This document shows positions 4,941 to 45,720 of a stretch of 55,193 nucleotides of DNA, one piece after another (position 1 is the stretch's first letter; every line of letters begins with the position of its first letter). This DNA comes from a virus: positions 1-55,193 of IMG/VR virus record IMGVR_UViG_3300031454_000005, one strand, 5' to 3'. The translations under genes were made by a program, and so were the position numbers. Below the pieces are notes generated by a model. That model was not told the origin of the DNA. It was given only the letters and a program-made list of their open reading frames with translations, and did not search any database.

Positions 4941-6070
4941 CGATGCCCGTTTACCCCGCGCCCGAACTGATCAGTGGCGCCTACGCGATGCGGATGGAGC
5001 TGTGGCGGGCCGACCGCTACGGCCGGAAGCTGGAGCGCCTGAGCGACCGGCGACCGGTCTCCGGCTCGATCAGCTTCAACGAGGACAACGAGTTCAAGCG
5101 GCAGCTGTCGCTCACCATCGAGGATCCCGGCGCGCTGCGCCCGTTCCAGGACTTCGTCATCCCGACCATCGCCCTGGCGAAGCCCTTCGGTGCGGTCGAG
5201 GAGCGCAACCTCGGCCATTTCCTCATTACGCCGCCTGCCCAGTCGGTCGCGACCGGACGCCGCACCGGTCAAATCGAGGCCCGGGACAGCACCATCCTGC
5301 TGGCCCGCCGGCAGGTCGGGGACTTCACGCGGCCGGCCGGGGCGGATGTCGGCCGGGTCGCCTACGACCTGGCACTGACGGCCGGGTTCCTTCCCGAGCA
5401 GCTGGACATCCCCGTCGATACCGGCGTCGCGCTGGATCAGGACTACCGACCGTCACCGGGCGCGGTCGTCCTGGTCGAGGTGAACACGCTGCTCAACGCC
5501 GGCAACTGCTACACGGTCTGGGGGACGGGCAACGGGCTGGTGAAGTCGGCCCGCTACCAGGACCCGTCGCGGGGCGTGGCCAACCGACGGTACTCGACCG
5601 AGTCGGGCCTGGAGATCGTGCCGCCGATCACCGAGACGCCCAGCTGGGACAGCCTGCGCAACGCCGTCACGGTCCGCAACCTCCGGCCCGGCCAGCCGCC
5701 GATCTGGTGGACCGCCCGGATCACCAACCGGAACCACCCGCTCTATTTCGATCCGGACGACTCGAGCGTCGGCTTCGGCAAGGAGTGGAGCGGGCCGCCC
5801 GTCGACAACAGCCAGATCCCCGATGAGGCGGCGGCGAAGGCGCTGGCCGAGAGCCTGCTCGCCGCCGGCGCCAGCTACTACCGCAAGCTCGCGGTCACGA
5901 CCGTGGTGGACATCGACGCCGGCGGGCACGACCTCATCGAGCTCGACATCCGCAACGGACGCGAAGTGCTCTACGACGGTCTCTGGCGCCGCCGCACCTG
6001 GCGGATCGCGCTCCAGGGGATCAGCGCCACAACGGAATCAGATCTCTATCGCTCGGAGGACTGGCAATGA
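4937..6070 (+). CDS. Minor tail protein (tail tip/baseplate component)
   Basis: ATGA start/stop overlap with the upstream gene; 377 aa. Second gene after the TMP in a tail module. No specific motif recognised. Confidence 0.6.
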   Translation: MTMPVYPAPELISGAYAMRMELWRADRYGRKLERLSDRRPVSGSISFNEDNEFKRQLSLTIEDPGALRPFQDFVIPTIALAKPFGAVEERNLGHFLITPPAQSVATGRRTGQIEARDSTILLARRQVGDFTRPAGADVGRVAYDLALTAGFLPEQLDIPVDTGVALDQDYRPSPGAVVLVEVNTLLNAGNCYTVWGTGNGLVKSARYQDPSRGVANRRYSTESGLEIVPPITETPSWDSLRNAVTVRNLRPGQPPIWWTARITNRNHPLYFDPDDSSVGFGKEWSGPPVDNSQIPDEAAAKALAESLLAAGASYYRKLAVTTVVDIDAGGHDLIELDIRNGREVLYDGLWRRRTWRIALQGISATTESDLYRSEDWQ

Positions 6071-8616
6071 GCACTCCTGATCCTGGGGCAATCCGGGGAC
6101 TGGCGACCGGTCTGTGGGCCAGCCTGACGCGGGACGTCAAGGCGACCATCGACCGCCTGACGGACGTCCGCCGGGTGCAGGCGATCGAGGAAGACGGCCG
6201 GGTCACGATCGCGTCGACCAACCCCGACGCCCCGGCTCCCATGACGGTGTCGCGGTTGCGGGGTTCGACGTTCGCGCCGGGCGACGACGTGGTCACGATG
6301 CGGGTCGCCGGCTACGACGTCGCGATCGGAACGCTGGCGACGGCGGCTGACATGGTGGACAACGGTCAGGGCAATGGACCGGGTGGCACGCCCAACCAGA
6401 GCATCGATGTCTATGGACCGGGGCTGGGTCTGATCACTAGCAACCCGGCCGTAATGGATTTCAAGAACGGGTTCGCGCTCAGCGAACCCGTCCCGGACGT
6501 GGTCAGGCTCGACCTCGCCTACGGTGGGAACGGCACGGCGACGACCGTAGCGCGAAGCGATCACACCCACGTCGCGACATGGGATGTCCTGATCGTCATC
6601 CCCTACAGCATCCGCTATCAGGGCACCGTCCGGGCGATGACGACCAAGGAACGGTCGATGTGCGAGACCGTCGCCCGCCAGTTCTCCGGCCTCTATTCGA
6701 TGGCCTCCGGTGGCCTGATGGATGTGCGGGCGCGGGGCGTGTTCCGCGAAACGACCTGGGATCTGGATGCCGACCTCGCCGCGATCGGGAGCGGCTTGCC
6801 GGGGTTCGGCACGGGCGTCTGGATCGACGCCCAGCACGGCCAGCGGTTCCTCGATACCTACAACGGCCGGACCTACGACGCCCAGGTCATCATGGTCGGC
6901 AAGGCGCAGATCGACTCGACCGCCGACGGGCTCACCACGGGCGGCACGCCGGGCTGGTGTTTCCTCAACATCGGGGACGGCAACTACGACTTCTACGCCG
7001 GCCAGAACCGGCTTGCGGACGTGCTGGTCCATGAGATGAACCACCAGGTCGAATCGCGGATGCAGAACCTCGGCCTGGCGATCTCGCCGGTCGATGGATC
7101 GATACCCGGCACCACTGGCGCAGCGGCAATCAACAACGAGCCGCACCACAACTGGTTCTCCGGCTATATCGCCTGGTGGGACTACAACGACTTCTCCGGG
7201 CTGACCGACGACGGCCACGGCCCGACCGTCCACGCCGACACCCTGACGCTGCCCGACATCTACGTCGACCCGGACAACGGCTGGGGTGTGTTCACCACCG
7301 GAGGAACCGGCGACTACAACCAGAGCATCGACGTGTTCGGTACCGGCGTCGGCCAGATCACGTCCAACCTTGCCTATATCGACGTCAAGGACGGCCTGCT
7401 GGCGACGGAGCCGACCGTCGATGGTGTCCGGCTCGACGTGGACTTCACCGCGTCCGGCGGCTCCAACGGCACGACAACCAAGGTGGCGCGAGGCGATCAC
7501 ACACACGCGGCGGCGGACATCGCCTCTGGCATCATCGTCCCCGCCCGGCTCGGCATTGGCACCGCCTCGGCCACGACAACCCTGTATGGCGATGGGACGT
7601 GGAAGACGGCGCCGACCGGCGGAACGAGCACGACGTGGAACGGCGGCGATGTCACGGCGGCGACCCACTATCGCAACGTCGCGGTCGACGGGGACGACAG
7701 CGCGAGCGTCCGGCGCTGGGCGATGTATTCATCGGGGACGTTCGAGTCGTACGACGCCAACGGCTTTGTCCGCGCCAGCCTCGGGAACGGGTCGCTTTCG
7801 CTCTACGATTCGCTCGGCACGCAGACCGTCTACCTCCCCACGACGGGCAACCCGAGCGTTCCGCCCCGCTTCGCCGTGACCCCCACCGTGGGCGCGTCGG
7901 GCAGCGCGGTGAACGTCAGTCTCACGGGGCACACACACGTCAAGGGCGATGTCGGGCTCGGCAACGTCGATAACACGTCGGACGCGAGCAAGCCGGTCAG
8001 CACACCAACGCAGACCGCGCTCGACGCCAAGGCACCGCTCGCGTCGCCGGCCTTCACCGGAACGCCAACGGGTATCACCAAGGCGCACGTCGGGCTCGGC
8101 AACGTGGACAACACCGCCGACACAGCCAAGCCCATATCAACGGCGACGCAGGCCGCGCTCGACAGCAAGAGCAGCACCGCTCACACGGTCTCCCGGCCGA
8201 CCTCGAACTTCACCACGACGGCGACCGGCACCGTCGTCCCCACGGCCACCCTCGGTATCACGGTGGGGGCCAACGAGGTCTGGGAGTTCGTCATCGACCT
8301 GTTCACTGGATGCAGCGGGACCGGCGGGACCAAATGGGGCATCTACTGCACCCAGGCGGCGACGCTGCGCGGCAGCGCGATCGGCATGGCGGCGATCCCG
8401 ACCGCTGTCACCTCGGCATCCCTGACCACGAACGCCGGGCTGAGCGGCGTCGCGTTCAACACCGCCGCTCGCCAGGACGGGTGGGTCCGCATCGCCGGGA
8501 TCATCGCCAACGGGGCAACGGCGGGAACCTTCTACCCGGTCTGGGGAGCTGGCGTCGCGGGCGAAACCAGCACCCTGTACACCAACAGCCTGATCGTCGC
8601 CCATCGCATTGGGTAG
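6067..8616 (+). CDS. Tail fibre / receptor-binding protein with an embedded HExxH metallopeptidase-like segment
   Basis: ATGA overlap with the upstream gene; 849 aa. Contains two copies of the phage-fibre motif GLGNVDNT.D..KP.S...Q.AL..K (7951-8031 and 8089-8169). Contains two copies of NQSIDV.G.G.G.ITSN...G(G)NGT.TT.AR.DHTH (6394-6570 and 7318-7506). HEMNH is at 7030-7044. Confidence 0.8.
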   Translation: MSTPDPGAIRGLATGLWASLTRDVKATIDRLTDVRRVQAIEEDGRVTIASTNPDAPAPMTVSRLRGSTFAPGDDVVTMRVAGYDVAIGTLATAADMVDNGQGNGPGGTPNQSIDVYGPGLGLITSNPAVMDFKNGFALSEPVPDVVRLDLAYGGNGTATTVARSDHTHVATWDVLIVIPYSIRYQGTVRAMTTKERSMCETVARQFSGLYSMASGGLMDVRARGVFRETTWDLDADLAAIGSGLPGFGTGVWIDAQHGQRFLDTYNGRTYDAQVIMVGKAQIDSTADGLTTGGTPGWCFLNIGDGNYDFYAGQNRLADVLVHEMNHQVESRMQNLGLAISPVDGSIPGTTGAAAINNEPHHNWFSGYIAWWDYNDFSGLTDDGHGPTVHADTLTLPDIYVDPDNGWGVFTTGGTGDYNQSIDVFGTGVGQITSNLAYIDVKDGLLATEPTVDGVRLDVDFTASGGSNGTTTKVARGDHTHAAADIASGIIVPARLGIGTASATTTLYGDGTWKTAPTGGTSTTWNGGDVTAATHYRNVAVDGDDSASVRRWAMYSSGTFESYDANGFVRASLGNGSLSLYDSLGTQTVYLPTTGNPSVPPRFAVTPTVGASGSAVNVSLTGHTHVKGDVGLGNVDNTSDASKPVSTPTQTALDAKAPLASPAFTGTPTGITKAHVGLGNVDNTADTAKPISTATQAALDSKSSTAHTVSRPTSNFTTTATGTVVPTATLGITVGANEVWEFVIDLFTGCSGTGGTKWGIYCTQAATLRGSAIGMAAIPTAVTSASLTTNAGLSGVAFNTAARQDGWVRIAGIIANGATAGTFYPVWGAGVAGETSTLYTNSLIVAHRIG

Positions 8617-15855: not shown

Positions 15856-17043
15856 TCATGTTGTCGTACTTCCCGCCGCCCCGAACAGCCGATCACCGAG
15901 GTCGTCGGCGGCGCGGCGGTGGTCGTCCCGCGAGGTGTGGCTGTAGAGATCGAGGGTGATCTGGACGGAGCGGTGGCCCAGCCGCTCGGAGACCAGCTTG
16001 ACGTTCGTCCCGGCCCGAACTTCCAGGGTGGCATTCGTGTGCCTGAGCTGGTGTAACGTGATCGGGGTGACGCCGGTGGTCTCGATCAGACCGGCGTGAA
16101 CGCGCTGCCAGGTCGTGCGGGCGAGGAAGCGCCCGTCGCCGCGGTCGAAGACCATGCCGTCGTCGTGCCAGACGGCCGAGGCCAGGCGGCGGCGCTTCTG
16201 CTCGGTCGACCAGGCACGCAGGGCCGCGACGGCGGACGCGGGGATGGCGTTCTCCCGTTCCCGGCCGGTCTTGGTGGACTCGCCCATCACGACATGGCCG
16301 GCCAGGTCCTTCGTGAGAGAGCGCTGGACCGTGATGATGCCGGCATCGAGATCGACGTCGGCCCACTGGATGGCGCAGAGCTCACCCGGCCGCATCCCGG
16401 TCGAGAGCGCGACCCGGTAGAAGGCGTCCCACATGGGCTCGCCGGCCAGCGTCACGATGACCCGCTGGACCTCGGCGACGGACCAGGTCGGGATCTTCTT
16501 CTTCCGGGCGATGGGGTAGCGCAGCCCGACGGCCGGGTTGACCGGGATGATGCCGAGCCGGGCGGCCTCGGCCAGCGCGGCGGTCAGGACGCGGCCGCTG
16601 TTCTCGATCGTGTTGGGGCCGTACTTGCGCCGCCGGGCGTCGTCGATCCAGTGCTGGATCCGCCCCGTCGTCAGACCCTCGATCCGGAGCGTGCCGAGGT
16701 CGGGGTAGATCAGGCGCTCGGCCCGTTGGCGGTAGGCGGCGTGGGTGGCCGGCTTCCAGCGGCCCTCGCCGCGGTCGAGGTAGTCGCCGACGGCGTCCTT
16801 CACCGTCATGTTGGAGGGCGGGACGTAGCGGCCGTGGCGCTTCTTACGAGCGACGTCGCGCAAATGGTCCTCGGCGGCGTCCTGGTCGGGAAAGGACTTC
16901 GAGCGCCAGATCGTATGCCCGGTGTCCTGCGGCTCCGGCCAGCGGGCCCGGACCCGTTCGGTCCCATCGGTCAGCTGGTAGCTGAGCACGTAGCCGTCCC
17001 CGTAGCGGACGCCCTCGCGCCGGCGTGGTTCTCGACGTGCCAT
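15856..17043 (-). CDS. int: Tyrosine integrase (site-specific recombinase, phage integrase family)
   Basis: 395 aa. C-terminal HQLRHTNATL ... LGHRSVQITLDLYSH matches the R-H-R-Y catalytic region. The N-terminus has a SAM-like/arm-binding style region. Confidence 0.9.
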   Translation of the reverse strand: MARREPRRREGVRYGDGYVLSYQLTDGTERVRARWPEPQDTGHTIWRSKSFPDQDAAEDHLRDVARKKRHGRYVPPSNMTVKDAVGDYLDRGEGRWKPATHAAYRQRAERLIYPDLGTLRIEGLTTGRIQHWIDDARRRKYGPNTIENSGRVLTAALAEAARLGIIPVNPAVGLRYPIARKKKIPTWSVAEVQRVIVTLAGEPMWDAFYRVALSTGMRPGELCAIQWADVDLDAGIITVQRSLTKDLAGHVVMGESTKTGRERENAIPASAVAALRAWSTEQKRRRLASAVWHDDGMVFDRGDGRFLARTTWQRVHAGLIETTGVTPITLHQLRHTNATLEVRAGTNVKLVSERLGHRSVQITLDLYSHTSRDDHRRAADDLGDRLFGAAGSTTT

Positions 17044-35479: not shown

Positions 35480-35836
35480 GTGGGACGTACCATCCGTACC
35501 CTGAAAAACCGGACGCTCATGCTCAACGCCCTCGCCGATGGTGAGAGCGTCATTACTGCGTGCGAGATGGCGGGTATCGGCAAGCGGTCCTACTACGATT
35601 GGCGCTGCGACGACGCCGAGTTCAACGCCGACGCCGACGCCGCCATGGAGCAGGGCGCCGACCGCCTCGAAGCCGAGGCGATGCGCCGGGCACTGGACGG
35701 TAGCGACGTCCTGCTGATGTTCCTCATCAAGGGCAAGCGACCGCACATCTACCGTGACAACGTCAAGCATGAGCACTCCGGGTCGGTCACGTTCTCGGAT
35801 CTCCACGCGCTCGCCGGTCAGGCGGCGCCGGAGTGA
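35480..35836 (+). CDS. terS: Terminase small subunit (HTH type)
   Basis: ACEMAGIGKRSYYDWRCDDAEFNADADAAMEQGADRLEAEAMRRALDGSDVLLMFLIKGKRP is the typical actinophage TerS pattern. Immediately upstream of TerL. Confidence 0.75.
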   Translation: MGRTIRTLKNRTLMLNALADGESVITACEMAGIGKRSYYDWRCDDAEFNADADAAMEQGADRLEAEAMRRALDGSDVLLMFLIKGKRPHIYRDNVKHEHSGSVTFSDLHALAGQAAPE

Positions 35837-37281
35837 CGGTTGCCGGACGGCTTCGCCCAACCGAGGCACGCGACATCCTCGGCTCAGCCCAGGATCCGGT
35901 CTGGTTCTGCGAGCACGTCCTCGGGCACGATCCCTGGCTGATGCCGCGTCAGATCATGCGCGCTGTCAATCAGCCTCGGGCTCGGGTCGCCGTGAAGTCC
36001 TGCCACTCCTCAGGGAAAACCTTTTCGGCGTCCGAGATGGTCCTGTGGTGGGTATTCGTCATGCGCGGGATCGCGATCACCACGGCCCCCACCTGGAACC
36101 AGGTCGAGAAGCTGCTCTGGCGCGAGATCCACATCGCGCATGCCGGCTCGCGCTTTCCGCTTGGCGGCGAACTGATTCAGACCGAACTCAAGCTCGGGCC
36201 CAACACGTTCGCGATCGGCCTCTCGACCAACGAGGGCGTCCGCTTCCAGGGCTGGCACGCGAGCCCCGGCCACCCGATCCTGATCATCCTCGACGAGGCG
36301 CCGGGCGTGGCGCCGGACATCCACGAGGCCATCGAGGGTATTCGTGCCGGTGGTGACGTGCGCCTGCTGGAGCTTGGCAACCCCGTCATCGCTTCTGGTC
36401 CGTTCTACGACGCCTTCACCACGCAGCGGGCGTCCTGGACGACGTTCACGATCGACGCCCTGGCGACGCCCAACTTCACCGACGACCTGTCCCGCCCGAT
36501 GACGATCGAGGAGCTCCGGACGCTGTCGGCCGACGAGCTGGCCCACGCCCCCCGGCCCTACCTCGTCACACGGCAATGGGTCCGGGAGAAGCTGGACGAA
36601 TGGGGGGAGGGATCGCCGCTCTGGGCCAGCCGGGTCCGGGGTCAGTTTCCGCAGCAGGGCGAGGACGCGCTGCTCTCGCTCGCCTGGCTGGAGCGGGCGT
36701 CCTCACCGACCGACCCGATCCTGGCACTGGCTGAGCCGATCGTCGCCGGCGTCGACGTTGCCGGTCCGGGCGAGGACGAGACCGTCCTGACCCTGCGCAC
36801 TGCTGGTCGCACCCCGCACCAGATCGTCTCGGTCCAGTCATGGGCCAGCGCCGACCCACGTGGCGCCGTCATCGCCGCGCTCGCGCCCTACCGCCATCGG
36901 CTCGTGACCGTCAATGTCGACGCGATCGGCGTGGGCTACAACTTCGCGCTCCACCTCGAGGACCAGGGCTTCCCGGTTACGCAGGTCAACGTCGGTGAGC
37001 GGCCGACGTCGGACTACACCGAACGGTTCGCCAACCTCAAGGCGCAGCTGTACTGGTCGCTTCGGGAAGCGCTTGCCGCCGGCGACATCGTGGGCCTGAC
37101 CGACGACGTCGCGGTGAGTCAGCTAGCGTCGATCCTCTATCGACAGGACAGCCGGGGCCGGGTCGCGATCGAGAGCAAGGAGGCGGCGCGGAAGCGCGGC
37201 GTCAAGAGCCCGGACCGGGCGGAGTCGGTGATGCTGGCGTTCGCGCCGCCGCGTAAACGACGAGGAGTGGGGTCCGCATGA
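35833..37281 (+). CDS. terL: Terminase large subunit
   Basis: GTGA overlap start. Walker A-like KSCHSSGKT, Walker B LIILDEAPG and nuclease-region GVDVAGPGEDETVL. 482 aa. Confidence 0.85.
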   Translation: MTVAGRLRPTEARDILGSAQDPVWFCEHVLGHDPWLMPRQIMRAVNQPRARVAVKSCHSSGKTFSASEMVLWWVFVMRGIAITTAPTWNQVEKLLWREIHIAHAGSRFPLGGELIQTELKLGPNTFAIGLSTNEGVRFQGWHASPGHPILIILDEAPGVAPDIHEAIEGIRAGGDVRLLELGNPVIASGPFYDAFTTQRASWTTFTIDALATPNFTDDLSRPMTIEELRTLSADELAHAPRPYLVTRQWVREKLDEWGEGSPLWASRVRGQFPQQGEDALLSLAWLERASSPTDPILALAEPIVAGVDVAGPGEDETVLTLRTAGRTPHQIVSVQSWASADPRGAVIAALAPYRHRLVTVNVDAIGVGYNFALHLEDQGFPVTQVNVGERPTSDYTERFANLKAQLYWSLREALAAGDIVGLTDDVAVSQLASILYRQDSRGRVAIESKEAARKRGVKSPDRAESVMLAFAPPRKRRGVGSA

Positions 37282-37565: not shown

Positions 37566-37768
37566 ACTGGTATGTGACGGTGATTGTGTTCCAGTTGGTC
37601 TGTCTTGTCGGCATAGTCGCGGCCCTGCCCCTTATATGGGCGATCGAGACGGGACGCCTTGACGCTCATCTGGACGACATCCGTGGCGGCCGGATCGTCG
37701 GCACCTGTGTGGGTCTGCTGGTTATTGCAACAGCCTGCGGGCTTGTCGTAGGGATGGTGGCGTCATGA
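37562..37768 (+). CDS. Two-TM small membrane protein
   Basis: VTVIVFQLVCLVGIVAALPLIW and IVGTCVGLLVIATACGLVVGMV; 68 aa. Confidence 0.5.
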   Translation: MNWYVTVIVFQLVCLVGIVAALPLIWAIETGRLDAHLDDIRGGRIVGTCVGLLVIATACGLVVGMVAS

Positions 37769-39255
37769 CCCTTCCTGCCGATCCCCTAAAATGGGCCGTC
37801 ACCGCCTTCCGTGACGGCCGGAACCTCAACTACGAGACCTACGCGAAGTACCTTGCCGGCAAGCAATCACTGGAGTTCGCGACGGATCGGTTCCGCCTGG
37901 CCTTCGGCGACCTCGTCGAGGCCCTGACCTACAACCGGTGCGAAGCGGTGGTCGACGCCCACGCAGACCGCCTGCAGGTCGCTGGCTTCGCCGCCGACGA
38001 CGGCGTCCTCGCTCAGGCGGCCCAGGCCCTCTGGGACGCCAACCGGATGGACGTCCGGGAGGGGCATGTCGCGACCGACGCCTTTGCCCTCGGCGACAGC
38101 TATGTTGCCGTTGCGATGCACCCTGAACCGGGGCGAGGCGTCCAGTTCTGGACCCTGGACCCGCGTAACGTCCGGGTCCATTACAGCCTGGAAGCGCCGG
38201 GAGAGATCGACCTGGCCGCTCAGACGTGGCAGACCGAGGACGGACACTCCCGGTTGACCCTCTACTTCGCCGACCACATCGAGAAGTACGTCAGCCGGAC
38301 CAGGACGCCGTCGGGCTTGCCTGTCAGCGCCGTCGCGTTCGAGCGCTACCAGCCTGCGGACGAGCCGTGGCCGGTCGTGTTCCCTCCCGGCAGACCGGTC
38401 CCGGTGTTCGCATTCGCCAACAACGGGCGGACCGATTCCTACGGCGCAAGCGAACTGCGCAACGTCATCCCGATGCAGGACGGCGTCAACAAGACGCTCG
38501 CTGACATGGTGGTCGCGATGGAGTTCGCGGCTTTCCCGCAGCGCGTTCTGCTTGGTGTGGACCCACCGACCCCCGAGGAGCAGGCGATCTTCGACCGGTT
38601 CATGACGGGCGTCGACCGCATCCTGACCCTGAGCGATGCCAACTCCAAGATCGGGGAGTTCAGCGCCGTCAACATCGCCCAGTACCTCGCCATCGTCGAG
38701 TTCTGGGACAAGGCCATCTCCCGAGTCACCAAGGTACCGACGCACTACCTCGGCATGACGGGGGACTTCCCATCCGGCCGCGCCCTGCGGATCGCGGAGG
38801 GGCCGTTCATCGCCAAGCTCGAGGATCGCCAGCGGGCGTTCGGCGCGGTCTGGTCCGACATCATGACCTACGCCCTGATCCTGGACGGCAAGAGCATCGA
38901 GCCGGGCGACCTGCGGGTGAACTGGAAGAGCGCGGCACCACTGAGCTCGGAGGATCAACTGGACCTGGCGTTGGGCAAGAAGACGCTTGGGATGCCGTTC
39001 CCCCAGATCCTGCGCGAGCTGGGGTACGAGCCGACGCAGTTGGCAACGATCCTCGAAGACGGGCAGACGGACATCGAGGCGGAGCTTGCGGCGGTCCGGG
39101 AGGCGAAAGCGAAGGGCCTCCAGCTGATCGAGACGCTGCGGTCGCCATGGGCGCTGCGTGAGGCCGGGGTGCCGGACGACGCGGTGAAGGACATCGAGGA
39201 GCTCAACGGCATGGACGCGATGGACGGCCTCGGCGACGTTGGGGGAGGGCCATAG
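37765..39255 (+). CDS. Portal protein (SPP1 gp6-like)
   Basis: 496 aa. Position is after TerL. The pattern FAAFPQRVLLGV ... VPTHYLGMTGDFPSGRALRIAEGPFIAKLEDRQ is typical of SPP1-type portals. Confidence 0.8.
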   Translation: MTLPADPLKWAVTAFRDGRNLNYETYAKYLAGKQSLEFATDRFRLAFGDLVEALTYNRCEAVVDAHADRLQVAGFAADDGVLAQAAQALWDANRMDVREGHVATDAFALGDSYVAVAMHPEPGRGVQFWTLDPRNVRVHYSLEAPGEIDLAAQTWQTEDGHSRLTLYFADHIEKYVSRTRTPSGLPVSAVAFERYQPADEPWPVVFPPGRPVPVFAFANNGRTDSYGASELRNVIPMQDGVNKTLADMVVAMEFAAFPQRVLLGVDPPTPEEQAIFDRFMTGVDRILTLSDANSKIGEFSAVNIAQYLAIVEFWDKAISRVTKVPTHYLGMTGDFPSGRALRIAEGPFIAKLEDRQRAFGAVWSDIMTYALILDGKSIEPGDLRVNWKSAAPLSSEDQLDLALGKKTLGMPFPQILRELGYEPTQLATILEDGQTDIEAELAAVREAKAKGLQLIETLRSPWALREAGVPDDAVKDIEELNGMDAMDGLGDVGGGP

Positions 39256-39316
39256 CATCGCTTCGCTGAGCCCGTCCCGGACGATCAACCGCTAGCCACC
39301 GAACAGGAGTAAACCC

Positions 39317-39763
39317 ATGGCTTTCACCTCGACCGCGGCCGGGAACCTCGGCGCCCACCTCGCCAACGCCCGGGTCAACTGGCTGACCGGCCCCATCAAG
39401 ATCATGCTCTGCGCCTCGACGTTCGTCCCCAACAAGGACACGACGATCTACAAGAGCGACGTGACAGGCGAGCTTGCTACCGGAGCGGGCTACACGCTCC
39501 GGGGACTGGCGCTGACTGCCAAGACCGCCGCCTATGACGCCGCGACCGACACGACGCCCCTGTCCGCCGCCAATGCCGTCTGGACGACCGCAGCGGGGCA
39601 GACGCTTACGTATCGTGTGTACGTGATCTACAGCGACACCGGCACCGACACGACCTCGCCGGTGATCGGCTGGGGCGTGGAGAGCGCCGACCAGACGGCG
39701 TCCAATGGTGGTACCGCGACCATCACGTTCGACGCGACCGGCATCGTCCGGCTGGCCACCTAA
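39317..39763 (+). CDS. Hypothetical beta-rich virion-associated protein
   Basis: CAGGAG RBS; 148 aa, rich in Thr/Ala/Gly. First ORF of the insertion between the portal and the MuF-like gene. Confidence 0.55.
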   Translation: MAFTSTAAGNLGAHLANARVNWLTGPIKIMLCASTFVPNKDTTIYKSDVTGELATGAGYTLRGLALTAKTAAYDAATDTTPLSAANAVWTTAAGQTLTYRVYVIYSDTGTDTTSPVIGWGVESADQTASNGGTATITFDATGIVRLAT

Positions 39764-39766
39764 TCC

Positions 39767-40486
39767 GTGCCCGGTCCGTACACACGGCACACCACCGGAC
39801 AGGTGATCGACGCGATCGACATCAACGAGCTGCAGGATGGGCTAGAAGGCGCGGCCCCAAGCATCGTGACGACCGCTGCCTTCGATGACTTCGTGAGCAA
39901 TACCGGGAACGGTGCGCTCGGCTGGAACAACACCTTCGGCGTGTCATCCAACTCCGTCGTCCATTACACCGGGCATCCGGGCGTCCTCACGCGGTCCAGC
40001 GGTGCGACGGCGAGCAACTATGCCGCGCACATGCTCCCCAACGGCTTCGATCCGGTCGAGTTCTTCGACGTGACATTCATCTTCGCAATGGGAACCGCGT
40101 CGGCGGGCGCGGACGTCCTGTTTCGGGTCGGCATCGGATCACACAGCGCATTGACATCCAATCCGTCTACCGCCGGAGCGTGGCTGGAAAAATTGGCGGC
40201 GGATACCGCCTGGTGGCGCGTCACCCGGAACGCGAGTGTCCAGACTCGGGAGACAACAGGCATCAACGTCGTCGCCCTCGACTGGATCAAACTGCGCATA
40301 CGCCGGATCTCGTCCACGAGTATCGGGTTCACGATGAACAACGCCTCCGAGGTGGCCATGACGACCAACCTACCTTCGGCCGGGCAACTGGTCCAGCCAT
40401 TCTTCGCAATCCTCGGAACGACGACGACCGCACGGACGGTCCTCGTCGACCTGTTCACGATGACCATTACCGGCCTCGCACGATAG
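39767..40486 (+). CDS. Fibre-like protein (tail/head fibre N-terminal motif plus jelly-roll-like C-terminal domain)
   Basis: The N-terminal TGQVIDAIDINELQDGLE matches the motif common at the N-termini of prophage fibre/hyaluronidase-like proteins. 239 aa. Confidence 0.5.
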   Translation: MPGPYTRHTTGQVIDAIDINELQDGLEGAAPSIVTTAAFDDFVSNTGNGALGWNNTFGVSSNSVVHYTGHPGVLTRSSGATASNYAAHMLPNGFDPVEFFDVTFIFAMGTASAGADVLFRVGIGSHSALTSNPSTAGAWLEKLAADTAWWRVTRNASVQTRETTGINVVALDWIKLRIRRISSTSIGFTMNNASEVAMTTNLPSAGQLVQPFFAILGTTTTARTVLVDLFTMTITGLAR

Positions 40487-40496
40487 GAGCGGTTCC

Positions 40497-40736
40497 GTGG
40501 ACATTCTCGTTTCCATTAGCGGCGCGCAATCAAGCGGCGGCGGCCGTCTTTCCGCCGGCCTCCTCATCGCTACCTCGACTGGATACCAGCTTCAGGCCGA
40601 CATCATCGTGGACTTCGCTTCCTCGACGACGCAGATGAACGCCAACGTCCGGTCACAGGCTCTGGCGATCCTGAACGGCAGCGGGATCATCGCAACGACC
40701 AGCGACCGGATGCGTGTCGCAGGCGGCTTCGTCTAA
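40497..40736 (+). CDS. Hypothetical 79-aa protein
   Basis: GTG start with tight spacing to both neighbours. Confidence 0.4.
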   Translation: MDILVSISGAQSSGGGRLSAGLLIATSTGYQLQADIIVDFASSTTQMNANVRSQALAILNGSGIIATTSDRMRVAGGFV

Positions 40737-40739
40737 CCA

Positions 40740-42284
40740 GTGGCCATCTTCGGGACGAGCGTCTTCGGGACCGGCAAATACGGCACCGAGGCGACGGGCA
40801 CCAACGCCTCGGCGTCCGCGCCTGCCGTGATCCTGACCGCGTCCGCCCCGATCCCGGTCTCGACCGCCATCCGGCTCGCAACGGCCACCTCGCCCGCGTC
40901 CACCCTGATCGCCTCGGCTCCTGCGCCGGTTGGCACGTCCGTCCAGCAGGCGTCCGCCGTCTCTGCGGTCTCAACCGTCACCGCATCTACACCCGCTCCC
41001 GTCAGTCTGATCGGTCAGGTTGCGTCGTCGTCGGCCAATGCGGCGACGGTCACGACCAGCGCACCCACGTCGGTTAGTTCCACCGTCCGGGTCGCATCCG
41101 CCGCCACCGGCGCAGCCACGGCGACCGCGTCGGCCCCGGCCCCCGTGAGTACGGCGGCTCAGGTCGCGTCATCCCCGGCTACTGCCTCAACCGTTACGGC
41201 ATCCGCTCCGGCCTCAACCTCCTCAACGGTTCGGGTCGCACCGTCGGCGGCGACCGCCGCAACCCTGACCGCGACCGCGCCAGCACCCGTCAGCACCGCG
41301 GTCCAGCAGGCGTCCTCCCTGTCTGCGGCTGCGACCGTGACGACCACGGCCCCGGCTCCGGCGTCAACGGCGGTCCGGATGGCGTCCGGCACAGCCCCGG
41401 CCAGTACCGTCGCCGTCACCGCGCCAACCCCGGTCTCGTCGGTCGTTCTCGTCGCCAGTTCAGCGGCTCCGGCCTCGGCTGTCACGATCACGGCCCCCGC
41501 AGCGACCAGCACGACGATCCGTTCCGCGGCGGGGAACATCGTTCCATCGAACGTCACAATCACCGCCCCGCCCCCCACGGCGAGCTCAACGGCGGGGGCG
41601 GGATCGGTCAGCTCGACAGCCCCGGCAACCGCCGTAGCGATCACCGTCCCCGCGGCGAGTGCATCCTCGGTCCGGGTGGCGACGTCGGCGGTGCCGATCT
41701 CCACGCTGACGGCGACCGCTCCGGCTCCGACCAGTTCGATCGGGACCAACGCCGGGTCTGCGTCGTCCGCTGCACCGGCCGTCACGCTGGTGGCCGTGAT
41801 CCCGGCTCCGGTGGCGACCTCCATTCGGCAGGCGACGACGACCGCTGGGGTATCGCTGGTCACGATCACGGTACCGGCACCGGAAGGCGCGGCGCTGTCC
41901 GTCTCGACCTCGGCCGCGGCGCTCGCACCGGCGGTGACGACGTGGCTGGTCATCCCGGCGCCGGTAGCGGTTTCGACATCGATCGCCAGCGCCTCGGCAG
42001 GCGTGGTGGTCCTGGTGATCGCGGCACCGCCTGCTACTTCGATCGCGACATCGCAGGCGGCCGTCGGGATCGGTGATGCCTTCCGGGCAATCGTCCCCGG
42101 CCCCGTCGCGTTCCGAACCGCCGTGCCGTCCCTCGGTGCGTTCCGGGTGCCGGTGGCCGTCCTCACGGCGACACGGGCGACCGTCGTGCCGGTGGGTGCG
42201 GTCCGTGATCCGGTCCCCGGCCCTGGCGCGACGAGACAGATCATCCCGGCCGGTGTGGCCGTGACCCGTGAGCGAAAGGACTAG
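40740..42284 (+). CDS. Ala/Ser/Thr/Pro/Val tandem-repeat protein (about 17 x 24 aa, then about 7 x 10 aa)
   Basis: GTG at 40740 lies 3 nt after the upstream stop, and the stop lies 5 nt before the next ATG. N-terminus FGTSVFGTGKYG. Repeat unit approximately ..A.TVT.TAPAPVSTAV..AS. The C-terminus has GAFR/VAFR-type decamers. Both antisense frames are also open (repeat artefact). Confidence 0.6.
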   Translation: MAIFGTSVFGTGKYGTEATGTNASASAPAVILTASAPIPVSTAIRLATATSPASTLIASAPAPVGTSVQQASAVSAVSTVTASTPAPVSLIGQVASSSANAATVTTSAPTSVSSTVRVASAATGAATATASAPAPVSTAAQVASSPATASTVTASAPASTSSTVRVAPSAATAATLTATAPAPVSTAVQQASSLSAAATVTTTAPAPASTAVRMASGTAPASTVAVTAPTPVSSVVLVASSAAPASAVTITAPAATSTTIRSAAGNIVPSNVTITAPPPTASSTAGAGSVSSTAPATAVAITVPAASASSVRVATSAVPISTLTATAPAPTSSIGTNAGSASSAAPAVTLVAVIPAPVATSIRQATTTAGVSLVTITVPAPEGAALSVSTSAAALAPAVTTWLVIPAPVAVSTSIASASAGVVVLVIAAPPATSIATSQAAVGIGDAFRAIVPGPVAFRTAVPSLGAFRVPVAVLTATRATVVPVGAVRDPVPGPGATRQIIPAGVAVTRERKD

Positions 42285-42289
42285 GCACG

Positions 42290-42727
42290 ATGGCACTCAT
42301 CAAGGACATCATCATCCGGGGTGACGACGAGGAATGGACGATCGCCCTGACCGACTCGGCCGGTGCTCCGCTCCCGTTGCGGACCCTTCAGATCCAGATC
42401 GTCGTCAAGCCGCCCGGCACCGACCTCGCCAGTGACAGCGACGCCCTCTATCGCCATACCGCGACCTTTGCGGCGGACGGCACGCTGACCGGCGCGGTCG
42501 GTATCCGGCTCGGCGGGACGGTGGACAGCGGCATCGTCACCGAGTTCCTGACGCCCACGGACATTGTGGCGTTGGCGACGGCCTATGACGCAATGGCCGG
42601 CAAGGACCCACGCATTCTGGCGCTCTGGGACGTGCAGGTACGGGACGCCTTCGGTCGGCACAAGACGGTCCTGTCGGGCCAGCTCTCGATGGTGCGCGAC
42701 ATCGGGCGCGTCCGCGACATCGCGTAA
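42290..42727 (+). CDS. Hypothetical Ig/BppU_N-like beta-sandwich protein
   Basis: IIIRGDDEEWTIALTDSAGAPLPLRTLQIQIVVKPPG recalls the N-terminal domains of baseplate upper proteins. 145 aa. Confidence 0.45.
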   Translation: MALIKDIIIRGDDEEWTIALTDSAGAPLPLRTLQIQIVVKPPGTDLASDSDALYRHTATFAADGTLTGAVGIRLGGTVDSGIVTEFLTPTDIVALATAYDAMAGKDPRILALWDVQVRDAFGRHKTVLSGQLSMVRDIGRVRDIA

Positions 42728-42746
42728 CCGGAGGAGGAGGCGAACG

Positions 42747-42953
42747 ATGATGCACGTCTTGCGCGAACCGAATTCCTATCCCATCGTGCTGATCGTGCCC
42801 CATGACGGCGCGCCGCCGACCCGCGTGGACACCGGCCTGATGGCGACCTGGTTCAAGGGCGAACTGATCGTCATGGTGTCGCCCGACGAGCTGGACGGCC
42901 TGATCGAGACACTGACGGCGGCGGTGAGCACGGCAAGAACGGAGGATGACTGA
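42747..42953 (+). CDS. Hypothetical 68-aa protein
   Basis: GGAGGAGGAGG lies 6 nt upstream of the ATG. Confidence 0.5.
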   Translation: MMHVLREPNSYPIVLIVPHDGAPPTRVDTGLMATWFKGELIVMVSPDELDGLIETLTAAVSTARTEDD

Positions 42954-43147
42954 TGAGCCTGCTGGACTGGTTGTTCCCGCCTCGGACCAGCCTCGCAGAC
43001 TTGCATCGTCACTGGGAGCGTGAAGACGAACTTGCCAATGAACGACTGCGCATCTGGTTGGAACATCAGCGGGAGACAGAGCGCCTGAATAACGAGCAAT
43101 GGCAGACGGTGACTACGCGGATGCCGAAGGACGGAGACGCAACATGA
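42953..43147 (+). CDS. Hypothetical 64-aa protein
   Basis: TGATG overlap with the upstream gene. Charged and helical. Confidence 0.45.
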   Translation: MSLLDWLFPPRTSLADLHRHWEREDELANERLRIWLEHQRETERLNNEQWQTVTTRMPKDGDAT

Positions 43148-43231
43148 GCGACTGTAGTAACCGTTACCGTGTTGGTCTGTATCACCATCGTCCTGTGCGT
43201 CGGGATGCTGGCAAGTCGGAAGGGGTAGCGA

Positions 43232-43438
43232 ATGGATACGGACCGGGTCAGGCTCGACGCCGACGAATGGAACGAGGACATCGACCGATTGGTCAGCGAC
43301 CACTATGGGGATCAAGGGCATGACCGCGACTGGCTTCGCGCGTTCGGCGAGGGTCTAATTCGGGCCGCAAACCGTCCGGACAGCACCGATGACGAGAACG
43401 ATCACGCGGAACGGGTAGGCGATGCCATCCGACCGTGA
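43232..43438 (+). CDS. Hypothetical acidic 68-aa protein
   Basis: GGAAGGGG RBS. Confidence 0.45.
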   Translation: MDTDRVRLDADEWNEDIDRLVSDHYGDQGHDRDWLRAFGEGLIRAANRPDSTDDENDHAERVGDAIRP

Positions 43439-44357
43439 CCGCAGCATCACCCCGCGTCTCGACCGGATGCTGGCCGATCTGGGCCGGGAGGTCGAACATA
43501 TCGTGCTCGACGTTGCCGGGTCACCCCTGACACCGATGACGAGCGCGCTGCGCGGCCGAGCGATGCCGAGGATCACGCGGGCGCTGTCGTCGGTCTACCC
43601 CGTCCGGCGCGGGGCGACGTCACCGCTGGAGACGCTGATCCTGGACGAGGCGACGGCGACGTGGGACCGGGTGCTCGTCGCCGAGGCGGACCGGTTGCGG
43701 GGCCAACTGTCCGATCGTCTCCTCGCGGCGATCGACGCCGGCGACGACGGCCTCGCCGAACTGCTGCGGATGAGCCGTCTGGCGCCGGACCGCCGCCTAG
43801 CGATCGCCCGGTCGCTGGACGATACGCGGACATGGGTCGATCCCAACGGCTACCGGCTCAGCGACCGGGTCTGGAACGCGCGACAGGGTGTCCGCCGGGC
43901 CATCGACCAGGAGCTGCGGCTCGGCATCGTGCGCGGCACCAGTCCGGTCGATGTCGCGGCCCGCCTGGAACGGTTCCTGACACCCGAGGGGGCGCGAGCG
44001 CGGAGCCGGGTCGTGCTGCGACCGGGCGACGAGCCGGGCACCGGCTCCTACAGCGCCCGCCGACTGGCCCGGACGGAGCTGACGGGGGCAAGAGCACAGG
44101 CGACGGTCGAGGCGGCGAGCCGGATCCCGACGACGCGGGGAATGAAATGGAACCTGTCGAATCGGCACCATCCGGGCGGGGACGAGTGCGACGAACTCGC
44201 CGGGGCAGATCGGTACGGATTGGGCTCAGGAGTCTACCCGTTGACGGCGCTTCCGAGGTTGCCACAACATCCGATGTGCCTTTGCTTCTGGACGACGAGC
44301 TTCCCAAGCCGGGAAGAGAGCGACCGGATCATTCGGGCGCGGTACGGGTTGGGTTGA
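43422..44357 (+). CDS. Head morphogenesis protein (SPP1 gp7 / Mu F-like)
   Basis: ARRLARTELTGARAQATVEAA ... WNLSNRHHPGGDECDELAG ... LPQHPMCLCF matches the Phage_Mu_F C-terminal pattern. Confidence 0.75.
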   Translation: MPSDRDRSITPRLDRMLADLGREVEHIVLDVAGSPLTPMTSALRGRAMPRITRALSSVYPVRRGATSPLETLILDEATATWDRVLVAEADRLRGQLSDRLLAAIDAGDDGLAELLRMSRLAPDRRLAIARSLDDTRTWVDPNGYRLSDRVWNARQGVRRAIDQELRLGIVRGTSPVDVAARLERFLTPEGARARSRVVLRPGDEPGTGSYSARRLARTELTGARAQATVEAASRIPTTRGMKWNLSNRHHPGGDECDELAGADRYGLGSGVYPLTALPRLPQHPMCLCFWTTSFPSREESDRIIRARYGLG

Positions 44358-44370
44358 GGAGAGCAAGCTG

Positions 44371-44514
44371 ATGGAGCCACGACCGGGACCGCAAGCCGAA
44401 ACACCGGGTGACGACGTTCGCTGGCTAGCTATGTTGATCCGGCAAGGGCTGTTGCTCATTGTCGCTGGAATTGAGCGCCGGTACGGGATTGGCCGGCAAC
44501 AGGAGGTGAAGTGA
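44371..44514 (+). CDS. 47-aa protein with one hydrophobic helix
   Basis: GAGGAG lies 9 nt upstream of the ATG. The stop overlaps the start of the next gene (GTGATG region). WLAMLIRQGLLLIVAGI. Confidence 0.4.
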   Translation: MEPRPGPQAETPGDDVRWLAMLIRQGLLLIVAGIERRYGIGRQQEVK

Positions 44515-45605
44515 TGGCTATGAGCTTGTTGGATCAGTACCTAGAGCGGCCCGAAATCAAGCGGCTACTTCTTTCGCTACGAGCCGAGGACATCGATGCC
44601 ATAAAGAATCATGGACTCCGGTCGCTAGACGGACGCATCTTAGCCGAAATGGAACGGTCTGGCGCCATCGGGTTGCCGGGCATCGTCCCGTTCCAAATCG
44701 ACAACGTCGCGGATTATGCACGCCAAATCTCGCGCGAGTCCAAAAGCGATAAGGGCCGCTACGATCGTTTCGTTTCGACGGTGCCATGTTTCACCCCGCC
44801 ATTCCCGTCGACTTGGTTTGAGTGGAATGATCCATCGGCGGGGCCCGATGAGGCGACAGTAAATGCCGTCCATGTTGTGGCGGAGGACTTATGGGAGTCC
44901 CTAGAGCCGGATGAAGCAACGGCCGTCGGGGAGCGGTATTACCTGAGCAAGCTACCGCCGGGTTGGTCCCACCTTGAAGGCATCTCGCTTGGGCCGGTGC
45001 GGTGGGTCCTGGACGTTTTCTCCCATTTCCGAGTGCGCGGTCGCGTCATTGACGCCTATGAGTGTCTGCTCGTTCTTGTAAGCCCGTCAGGTGAACTATC
45101 AACGGTCTACCAGAATGGCTCGCCTGCTGGAGCGGCGACACTGACCTATAGCAGCGACCCAGAACGTTGGAGAGTCCTCACTTTAGAGCAGCAGAATATC
45201 CGGGCCCGCACGCTCAAAGAACACTTCGCTACAGCCCTTATTGCAATCGGCTTCACTCATTGTAAAAACGTCAGCCAGGTCGAGTCGCCGCCGACCCCGC
45301 CGGACGTTGCGGCGAAGCGACGCAAAAAACTGGGACGCCCCGAGACCCGGTTTCGTCTCTTGATGATCGACCCGATGCGCGAAACCTTTGAGCGTAGCGA
45401 GGGGTCAGGCGAGCCAGGGCCGGGTCGGTCGTTCCATATCTGCCGCGGCTACTTCGCCGCCTACAGCGAGGATAAGCCGCTCTTCGGCAAACTGACAGGG
45501 AGGTTCTGGAGGCAAGCGCACACTCGCGGTCATATCGTCAACGGCGTCGTCGCCAAGCATTACCAGGTCAAGCATGGCGAACTATCGCAACTGACGGCGC
45601 CATGA
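44514..45605 (+). CDS. Hypothetical 363-aa protein, low-G+C accessory gene in the head module
   Basis: AGGAGG lies 7 nt upstream of the ATG. Visibly lower G+C than the neighbours. Followed by a canonical U-tract terminator. No motif recognised. Confidence 0.65.
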   Translation: MAMSLLDQYLERPEIKRLLLSLRAEDIDAIKNHGLRSLDGRILAEMERSGAIGLPGIVPFQIDNVADYARQISRESKSDKGRYDRFVSTVPCFTPPFPSTWFEWNDPSAGPDEATVNAVHVVAEDLWESLEPDEATAVGERYYLSKLPPGWSHLEGISLGPVRWVLDVFSHFRVRGRVIDAYECLLVLVSPSGELSTVYQNGSPAGAATLTYSSDPERWRVLTLEQQNIRARTLKEHFATALIAIGFTHCKNVSQVESPPTPPDVAAKRRKKLGRPETRFRLLMIDPMRETFERSEGSGEPGPGRSFHICRGYFAAYSEDKPLFGKLTGRFWRQAHTRGHIVNGVVAKHYQVKHGELSQLTAP

Positions 45606-45652: not shown

Positions 45653-45720
45653 GCCCGCTCTCGCTGGAACCGTCGCGCAAATCGCGCCTGTTCCTGACCG
45701 GAGCGGGCTTTTTGTGTTTT
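45653..45720 (+). terminator. Rho-independent terminator with a long U-tract
   Basis: GCCCGCTC ... (nested GGAAC/GTTCC and GCGC/GCGC pairs) ... GAGCGGGC followed by TTTTTGTGTTTT. Confidence 0.75.

Follow-up and report, generated by a model that had tools for sequence, protein, structure and literature searches.

Gene content of the portal-MuF interval

We analyzed a 55,193-nucleotide stretch of phage DNA (IMG/VR virus record IMGVR_UViG_3300031454_000005, hereafter the window), focusing upon a block of plus-strand genes that separates its portal gene from a gene encoding a MuF/gp7-type head-morphogenesis protein. The window is a complete metagenomic phage genome from a circularly closed assembly of about 55.15 kb with a G+C content of ~66%; closure is indicated by the 46-bp direct overlap shared by its two ends (positions 1-46 and 55148-55193). 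The block had originally been predicted to contain nine open reading frames (ORFs), four of them small. The portal and MuF-type matches, the tight packing of the genes between them, and the ORFs of 148, 239, 79, 514, and 145 amino acids (aa) all hold at the expected positions. However, the interval contains eight rather than nine plus-strand ORFs (148, 239, 79, 514, 145, 68, 64, and 68 aa), as only three small ORFs follow the 145-aa gene. Intergenic gaps within the block range from -17 to 84 nt. The features of the locus are as follows.

39296..42737, plus strand: five-gene mobile cassette, with limits taken from DNA similarity to the related locus L014
39317..39763, plus strand: gene 1, 148 aa, putative arm/adaptor protein, homologue of Bxb1 gp31 (phrog_644, E 1.2e-24)
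39767..40486, plus strand: gene 2, 239 aa, putative short fibre/lectin protein with the N-terminal motif TGQVIDAIDINELQDGLEG and an SO2946-like_C domain at residues ~39-239
40497..40736, plus strand: gene 3, 79 aa, no Pfam or PHROG match
40740..42284, plus strand: gene 4, 514 aa, repeat protein (candidate "stalk or brush"), 79% Ala, Thr, Ser, Val, and Pro
40842..42020, plus strand: ~17 copies of a 24-residue repeat within gene 4, consensus [ST]APAPVSTAVR[VQ]ASSxAxAxTVT
42075..42254, plus strand: C-terminal run of ~six 10-residue units (A[FVT]R..VP...) within gene 4, read from the translation and conserved in the relatives L012, L013, and L014
42290..42727, plus strand: gene 5, 145 aa, beta-rich, last gene of the cassette (phrog_1084, a family without known function, E 1.5e-5)
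42747-42953, 42953-43147, and 43232-43438, plus strand: three small ORFs (68, 64, and 68 aa) outside the cassette
37765..39255, plus strand: portal, 496 aa, left flank of the block (Pfam PF05133 SPP1_portal, E 1.8e-17; phrog_104, E 2.2e-73)
43422..44357, plus strand: MuF/gp7-type head-morphogenesis protein, 311 aa, right flank of the block (phrog_1657, E 3.9e-39)

Limits and mobility of the cassette

The extent of the cassette became apparent from a comparison with L014, in which each of the five genes has a homologue and the gene order is kept, with protein identities of 90% (gene 1), 54% (gene 2), 68% (gene 3), 54% (gene 4), and 88% (gene 5). At the DNA level, blastn aligned L014 with window positions 39296-40879 (72% identity) and 41340-42737 (76.5%), while a single 137-nt match near 45.8 kb was the only DNA similarity outside the cassette. 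Both the portal and the MuF-type protein of L014 are of the L009 type, and neither had a BLASTP match at E<=1e-3 among 16 head-region proteins of the window, its portal and MuF-type proteins included. Because the cassette is 54-90% identical in L014 while the portal and MuF-type proteins of L014 match none of the compared window proteins, the cassette is mobile, and we can conclude from these alignments that only the first five genes are a coherent unit, one exchanged horizontally between unrelated phages. The three small ORFs had initially been counted as module members. They have no family match in Pfam or PHROG, and in L012 and L014 their homologues precede the arm gene, so they are not members of the cassette.

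The comparison of synteny with relatives that had been proposed along with the original prediction also revealed variants of the five-gene order kept in L014. The L009 portal-MuF interval contains an arm gene (76% identical), a 232-aa gene 2, a 368-aa repeat protein, and a 141-aa homologue of gene 5. In L012, an arm gene (90% identical) follows the portal and directly precedes a repeat protein with a fused N-terminal domain, on a contig that ends before any MuF gene. L015 has an arm gene (80% identical) and an SO2946-like gene 2 after the portal, at which point the contig stops. In L010, the portal is followed by a 374-aa ORF, MuF-like by assumption only, and then by the arm gene and a repeat protein, while L013 is simply a 96.7%-identical strain variant of the window. 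The portal-MuF interval of L007 instead holds two collagen-like genes, one of which has an SO2946-like C-terminal domain and is 40% identical to the 239-aa protein. This collagen-like pair (L007 3165-5217) has near-identical N-termini (MARGAIFLPS.G..GPTGP) and a 223-aa gene in between, and only one of the two proteins is SO2946-like; they may be hetero-oligomeric or alternative fibres. Accessory phage adhesins are already known. As judged from these alignments, what is new here is a discrete, exchangeable five-gene cassette that occurs recurrently between portal and MuF-type genes, together with its composition of a lectin domain, a 24-residue repeat protein, and a phrog_1084 protein.

The genes around the block are arranged on the plus strand in the order large terminase, two small ORFs, portal, block, MuF-type gene, 364-aa ORF, scaffold, and major capsid, with the terminase as follows.

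35833-37281, plus strand: large terminase, 482 aa, uninterrupted

The MuF-type protein has further profile matches to phrog_4728 (E 1.1e-19) and phrog_115 (E 3e-17) and is 41% identical to the gene that follows the cassette position in L007; it had no match to Pfam Phage_Mu_F at E<=0.1. The 364-aa ORF (44511-45605), located between the MuF-type and scaffold genes, matches phrog_20769, a family without known function. The window portal is <30% identical to the portals of Streptomyces, Mycobacterium, Arthrobacter, and Gordonia phages. A megablast search of a 7.8-kb region against 50,697 phage records returned no match, and no relative turned up when GTDB genome contigs were scanned with portal peptides. 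The large terminases of two relatives contain an intein-sized insertion (L010 4347-6944, 865 aa; L015 3299-6082, 927 aa); the L010 terminase has a faint Hint_2 match, and that of L015 is 80% identical to the uninterrupted 482-aa terminase of the window. A 395-aa minus-strand ORF (15856-17043), located between the tail region and the early genes, could be a candidate integrase, which would imply a temperate lifestyle.

The arm, lectin-fold, and repeat proteins

Profile comparison identifies gene 1 as a homologue of gp31, the tail wing arm of mycobacteriophage Bxb1 and a virion appendage component whose structure has been solved. Bxb1 gp31 likewise matches phrog_644 (E 1.5e-42), and a profile of diverse arm-family members searched against the PDB returned 9d93_Ra ("Tail wing arm, gp31") as the one meaningful chain (E 3.8e-4). 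The single 148-aa sequence retrieved nothing useful from the PDB, as only the broader family profile reached 9d93. When an AlphaFold2 (AF2) model of gene 1 was submitted to Foldseek, 9d93_Ra was again the top PDB match (probability 0.77, target template modelling (TM) score 0.54). Arm homologues were found by tblastn in 72 phage records, which include Caulobacter phiCbK-like phages, Gordonia and Rhodococcus phages, and the Streptomyces satellite MiniFlayer, and at least 498 family matches occur in IMG/VR. Judging by these matches, the breadth of the arm family, linking Bxb1, phiCbK, MiniFlayer, and many uncultured phages, is a new finding. To our knowledge, the structure of the Bxb1 tail wing dates only from 2025, and we know of no chart of its wider distribution.

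A recurrent gene order accompanies this family, in which a small gene and then a large or fibrous one come after the arm gene. Bxb1 has gp31, gp32 (63 aa), and gp33, while the window has proteins of 148, 239, 79, and 514 aa. Gordonia phage Vasanti has gp26-27-28, with gp27 matching the Pfam fibre-tail adaptor family Gp77 (E 3e-24), and MiniFlayer has gp6 (arm), gp7 (68 aa), gp8 (1376 aa), and gp9, the last annotated as "tail fiber". In REQ3, Orf58 is followed by Orf59, and phiCbK gp075 (an arm homologue with 43% identity) is immediately upstream of gp076 (2799 aa, with a ConA-like domain). Among the 55 IMG/VR arm loci with at least 2.5 kb of downstream DNA, an ORF of 350 aa or more is found within the next three genes at 50, a count that has no control set; 28 of the same 55 have two ORFs upstream of the arm gene that are sized like the MiniFlayer scaffold and major capsid genes. 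L017 (7944-8843) has tandem arm paralogues of 149 and 146 aa upstream of small ORFs and a 1137-aa protein.

Gene 2 matches Pfam PF22237 (SO2946-like_C) with 37.9 bits against a cut-off of 27 (E 2.2e-9), covering 162 of 163 model positions. Its AF2 model has a mean predicted local distance difference test score (pLDDT) of 81.5, with residues 1-33 below 50, and the best PDB match by Foldseek was 2a5z (SO2946; E 1.1e-8, TM 0.66). The next matches were peanut lectin, Platypodium lectin, and a GH16 glucanase (probability 1.00), while further matches included the Emp47p carbohydrate-recognition domain and PL7 lyases. As modelled, the gene 2 domain is a concanavalin-A-like lectin/glucanase fold, and it is predicted most likely to bind sugars. 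E141, D146, T147, and several Arg residues are nearly invariant. A tblastn search of phages with gene 2 found nothing, and neither the single sequence nor a pair profile retrieved anything useful from the PDB. HMMER yielded 2192 representative homologues, and among the matches listed the domain forms the protein C-terminus in 150 of 150. Those inspected included collagen-like proteins, look-alikes of beta-helix tailspikes (judged by eye), and a 1163-aa tail-type protein, all ending in the gene 2 domain, and some of the BFVD matches share their N-terminal domain with Mtd, the tropism determinant of a Bordetella phage. The architecture is accordingly of the receptor-binding type, with a conserved C-terminal domain carried upon variable shafts and exchangeable among fibres.

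This exchange can be seen within the cassette itself. The L009 gene 2 retains the N-terminal motif, while its SO2946-like domain is replaced by a different C-terminal domain, and these C-terminal 141 aa are 49% identical (BLASTP, E 3e-33) to the tip of the following window protein.

6067..8616, plus strand: tail fibre, 849 aa (PHROG tail-fibre and minor-tail families)

Because the L009 gene 2 ends in a homologue of this tip, gene 2 of the cassette accepts genuine tail-fibre tip domains, and we consider the exchange, as read from the alignment, to be the strongest link of gene 2 to receptor binding. The 849-aa fibre also carries repeated "GT.TTVARSDHTH"-type motifs; a Pfam search with the window tail proteins found nothing. 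At the other end of gene 2, the motif G-x-[VI]-[IV]-D-A-x-D-I-N-E-[LI]-Q is common to L009, L014, and L015. By eye, this N-terminus resembles the post-arm gene of L052 as well as Bxb1 gp32, with which it shares the pattern G-x-x-[VI]-D-A-x-x-[IL]-N-x-L. A phrog_1560 match (E 0.13) aligns a different stretch from this by-eye alignment, and the link between the gene 2 N-terminus and gp32 is only suggestive. The N-terminus of the L052 gene 2 counterpart matches both phrog_5711 ("head fiber protein", E 4.7e-7) and a "minor tail protein" PHROG.

Less can be said of genes 3 and 5. Gene 3 adjoins the SO2946-like gene in the window, L013, and L014. Gene 5 had been described as a BppU_N/Ig-like protein, which was not borne out, as it has no match to BppU_N (Pfam PF10651) even at E<=5 and its sole family match is phrog_1084. 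It is 27-30% identical to its L009 homologue, which also matches phrog_1084 (E 1.6e-7). Searches with gene 5 by tblastn against phages found nothing, and a pair profile found nothing useful in the PDB. Comparison of the gene 5 family with MiniFlayer gp9 gave no significant link (no match by jackhmmer; 30 columns at 7.5% probability by hhalign).

The repeats of gene 4 are apparent from an identity autocorrelation of 0.318 at a lag of 24 residues against a background of 0.146. Tandem Repeats Finder detected no DNA-level repeat in the gene, since the copies have diverged too far in DNA and the period persists only at the protein level. The same period occurs in L009, L010, and L012 and downstream of the arm genes in L052, L060, and L081, and a hidden Markov model (HMM) of the repeat matches the L009 protein (E 3.5e-7). 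Vasanti gp28 has both a lag-24 period and the same AP-to-R spacing of 9 residues as gene 4, and its C-terminal domain recurs in 58 Gordonia phage records, where the usual annotation is minor tail protein. The repeat HMM had no significant match to Vasanti gp28, REQ3 Orf59, MiniFlayer gp8, or phiCbK gp076, and a search of solved structures for a likeness to the 24-residue repeat found none. The L010 and L012 proteins join the same repeats in frame to an N-terminal part without repeats; a Pfam search with the N-terminal domains of the relatives' repeat proteins found nothing. The first 350 residues of the L013 repeat protein are near-identical to gene 4 (6 substitutions) and are followed by a 51-aa in-frame insertion of ~two repeats, after which the C-terminal third of the gene is clearly more diverged (81% nucleotide identity). 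This pattern suggests recombination or repeat-number variation within the population.

The public gene calls for this DNA (ENA contig ERZ27247728 k141_486830, identical in sequence to the window) do not include gene 4 but place two minus-strand ORFs of 82 and 361 aa over window positions 40733-42244. If these calls were correct, the 514-aa ORF would be an artefact of high G+C, and the G+C content at third codon positions (GC3) is indeed equally high in the minus and plus frames (0.80 vs 0.81). GC3 was dropped as a strand test, since the minus frame shares its wobble position with the plus frame and the measure cannot separate the two. The remaining evidence renders this explanation extremely improbable. 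The plus-strand ORF fits the interval between its neighbours exactly, with gaps of 3 and 5 nt. Its N-terminus (MAI[FY]G..[VT][FY]GT..YG), repeat array, and C-terminus are conserved in L009, L013, and L014, while L012 shares the repeats and the C-terminal region, and the repeats are joined in frame to the other N-terminal domains of L010 and L012. No relative has an interrupted plus frame, whereas the minus ORFs are fragments whose breaks fall at different sites in each locus, and the difference between the window and its strain variant L013 is a clean in-frame block of 51 codons. Judged by this conservation, gene 4 is a genuine plus-strand gene of 514 aa, as had been proposed. Antisense "shadow" ORF calls over the repeat gene recur in L010, L012, and L013, and such a recurring mis-call probably means that this class of repeat gene is under-represented in protein databases.

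A probable adhesin appendage and its counterparts in known phages

The cassette genes are separated by gaps of only 3-19 nt. Neither promoter-like nor plus-strand terminator-like sites were found inside the block, and the sole plus-strand terminator-like hairpin in the 35-48.5 kb region lies at 45686-45708, after the 364-aa ORF. Given the lack of such internal signals, the cassette looks to be co-transcribed with the late head genes and, by its context, late-expressed. These features bear upon the question of whether the block might encode something unrelated to the virion, i.e. accessory genes (morons), perhaps for secreted or surface proteins that modify the host envelope or keep other phages out. 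Three of the five proteins (79, 514, and 145 aa) lack a characterized homologue, the composition of gene 4 would suit a surface or mucin-like linker, and the cassette is mobile. Nevertheless, the cassette is embedded in a late structural operon without promoter- or terminator-like signals of its own, gene 1 is homologous to a virion protein, and the gene 2 domain, which is found at the ends of phage fibre proteins, can be exchanged for a tail-fibre tip. Furthermore, MiniFlayer, with just 28 annotated features in 17 kb, keeps its arm gene, giant gene, and tail fiber gene within its structural module. A role outside the virion is therefore very unlikely.

We favor the interpretation that the five genes encode a late-expressed, virion-borne accessory adhesin appendage related to the Bxb1 tail wing, to which we assign a probability of roughly 0.6. 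The homology of gene 1 to the Bxb1 arm, the lectin fold of gene 2, and the counterparts of the repeat protein that are annotated as minor tail proteins all support the fibre-like or receptor-binding cassette originally predicted in this head operon, and a second adhesin set is the one among its three proposed alternatives with the best precedent, while a function apart from the virion fared poorly. The Bxb1 wing (PDB 9d93; Freeman et al., Cell 2025, as cited in PMC12646305) consists of a gp30 base, a gp31 arm, gp32, and a gp33 brush. In this system, gp30 is reported to be a D-Ala-D-Ala carboxypeptidase that contacts the tail spike and is bound by gp31 and gp33, a natural Bxb1 relative lacks genes 30-35, and a phage deleted for gp30 remains viable but grows modestly less well and has lost its plaque halos (PMC12646305). 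By analogy, the 148-aa protein would serve as an adaptor similar to gp31, a role suggested by its homology, and would hold one or both of the downstream proteins via their short conserved N-termini. The 239-aa protein would be a lectin-tipped short fibre that binds reversibly to envelope glycans, while the 514-aa protein would form a long stalk or brush of 24-residue repeats, whose length does vary between strains. The 79- and 145-aa proteins could be assembly or linker parts. The likely benefit would be a reversible first contact with the host envelope, leading to a higher adsorption efficiency, and the appendage, like the Bxb1 wing, is probably non-essential.

Several observations weigh against this interpretation. 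We infer that the products are in the virion, which of them bind one another, what ligand is recognized, and where the structure attaches. When Bxb1 gp29 (tail spike) and gp30 were compared by BLASTP with every window ORF of 40 aa or more, no match reached E<=0.01, and since the window has neither a gp30-like nor a gp29-like partner, the cassette falls outside the Bxb1 wing system as it is defined. Confidence in the arm model is only moderate (pLDDT 64.6, with a Foldseek E of 0.11), and gp31 spans only the C-terminal two thirds of the 148-aa protein. Likewise, the similarity between the repeats of gene 4 and Vasanti gp28 is not significant by HMM, as only the period and anchor spacing agree, and the "minor tail protein" labels of the Gordonia homologues are annotations rather than measurements. 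The 24-residue repeat could also be a disordered, possibly glycosylated linker, instead of a fibre.

The attachment site of such an appendage would have only the tail tip as a solved precedent, while a neck or portal vertex location is suggested solely by gene position. Were the latter correct, the cassette would encode head or neck fibres, with the repeat protein and lectin projecting from an arm docked upon the portal vertex, collar, or capsid, much like the head fibres of phi29, the whiskers of T4, or the head filament of phiCbK. The cassette is located after the portal and before the MuF-type gene in the window, L009, and L014, with portals of at least two very divergent types, and it also follows the portal in L012 and L015, the two truncated contigs. 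In the 28 of 55 IMG/VR loci mentioned above, the arm follows scaffold- and capsid-sized genes, which is the usual site of decoration genes. phiCbK gp075 is just upstream of gp076, a candidate head filament (PMC3556154), and the L052 gene 2 counterpart matches the "head fiber protein" family in addition to a minor-tail family. However, Bxb1 gp31, the sole solved member of the arm family, is at the tail tip. The gene pair is found after tail or lysis genes in Bxb1 and in Gordonia and Rhodococcus phages, and after the presumed MuF-like 374-aa ORF in L010. The role of phiCbK gp076 was never confirmed, and the protein was undetected among the virion proteins (PMC3556154). The head-operon position had initially been read as an indication of where the products reside. 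It is a poor guide to a head or neck location, because arm-fibre pairs occur in other phages after tail or lysis genes, after capsid genes, and after MuF-like genes, as well as next to the portal. Head or neck fibres thus seem possible, yet unlikely. We would be slower still to accept the broader proposal that the phrog_644 arm is a general plug-in adaptor and the cassette a portable, portal-proximal kit for lectin-bearing head or neck fibres, which we regard as speculative and doubtful; if true, it would tie such a kit mechanistically to the phiCbK head filament and the neck-binding fibres of MiniFlayer.

Accessory appendages set adsorption efficiency and sometimes host choice. The wing-arm family is widespread and travels with exchangeable lectin or fibre-tip domains as a compact cassette, which can occupy the head operons of phages with very divergent portals. 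The cassette is also a defined 3.4-kb unit that is usable for engineering or deletion tests. It offers candidate partners for the identity or anchoring of the phiCbK head filament and for the MiniFlayer adsorption module, and it flags a systematic gene-calling error in high-GC phages, namely antisense ORFs called over Ala/Ser/Thr/Pro repeat genes.

Among known systems, the SPP1 head module, in which portal gp6 adjoins gp7/MuF, has the same family types, order, and strand as the window, except that the portal and MuF-type genes of the window are 4.1 kb apart. This interruption is also present in L009 and L014, and in L007 with different fibre genes. For gene 2, the SO2946 protein of Shewanella oneidensis (2a5z) provides both the Pfam match above cut-off and the top structural match, though it is itself a protein without known function. 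The phiCbK genes resemble those of the window in that an arm gene precedes a very large, repetitive ConA-like protein within a head-proximal structural module, whereas gp076 is glycine-rich, at 2799 aa far longer than gene 4, and belongs to a phage with a proteobacterial host.

MiniFlayer and the MiniFlayer-like IMG/VR contigs have an arm (40% identical), a ~68-aa gene, a giant protein, and a ~111-aa beta protein, and their module, the gp6-gp9 genes of which have been termed a putative adsorption module (PMC10690885), is inside the head gene block like the cassette. It is located after the major capsid gene, however, its giant protein lacks the 24-residue periodicity, and the particle is podovirus-like with fibres that bind the neck of the helper phage. 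Vasanti and other Attisvirus phages share with the window an arm homologue (35% identical), a small adaptor-type gene, and a protein with a 24-residue period. Unlike those of the window, the Vasanti genes follow the lysis cassette and include no SO2946-like gene, and gp28 ends in a globular domain that gene 4 lacks.

In comparison with the Bxb1 wing, the window lacks a gp30-like carboxypeptidase base and a gp29-like spike, while it adds a lectin-domain protein and the 145-aa protein. Its arm has ~45 extra N-terminal residues relative to gp31, its putative brush is built from a 24-residue Ala/Ser/Thr/Pro/Val repeat rather than polyglycine, and its genes lie between the portal and MuF-type genes instead of after the tail genes. 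Both systems nevertheless have an arm of the same PHROG family, the same order of arm, small, and fibrous genes, and the status of accessory sets that some relatives lack. By this analogy, the cassette probably works like the Bxb1 wing.

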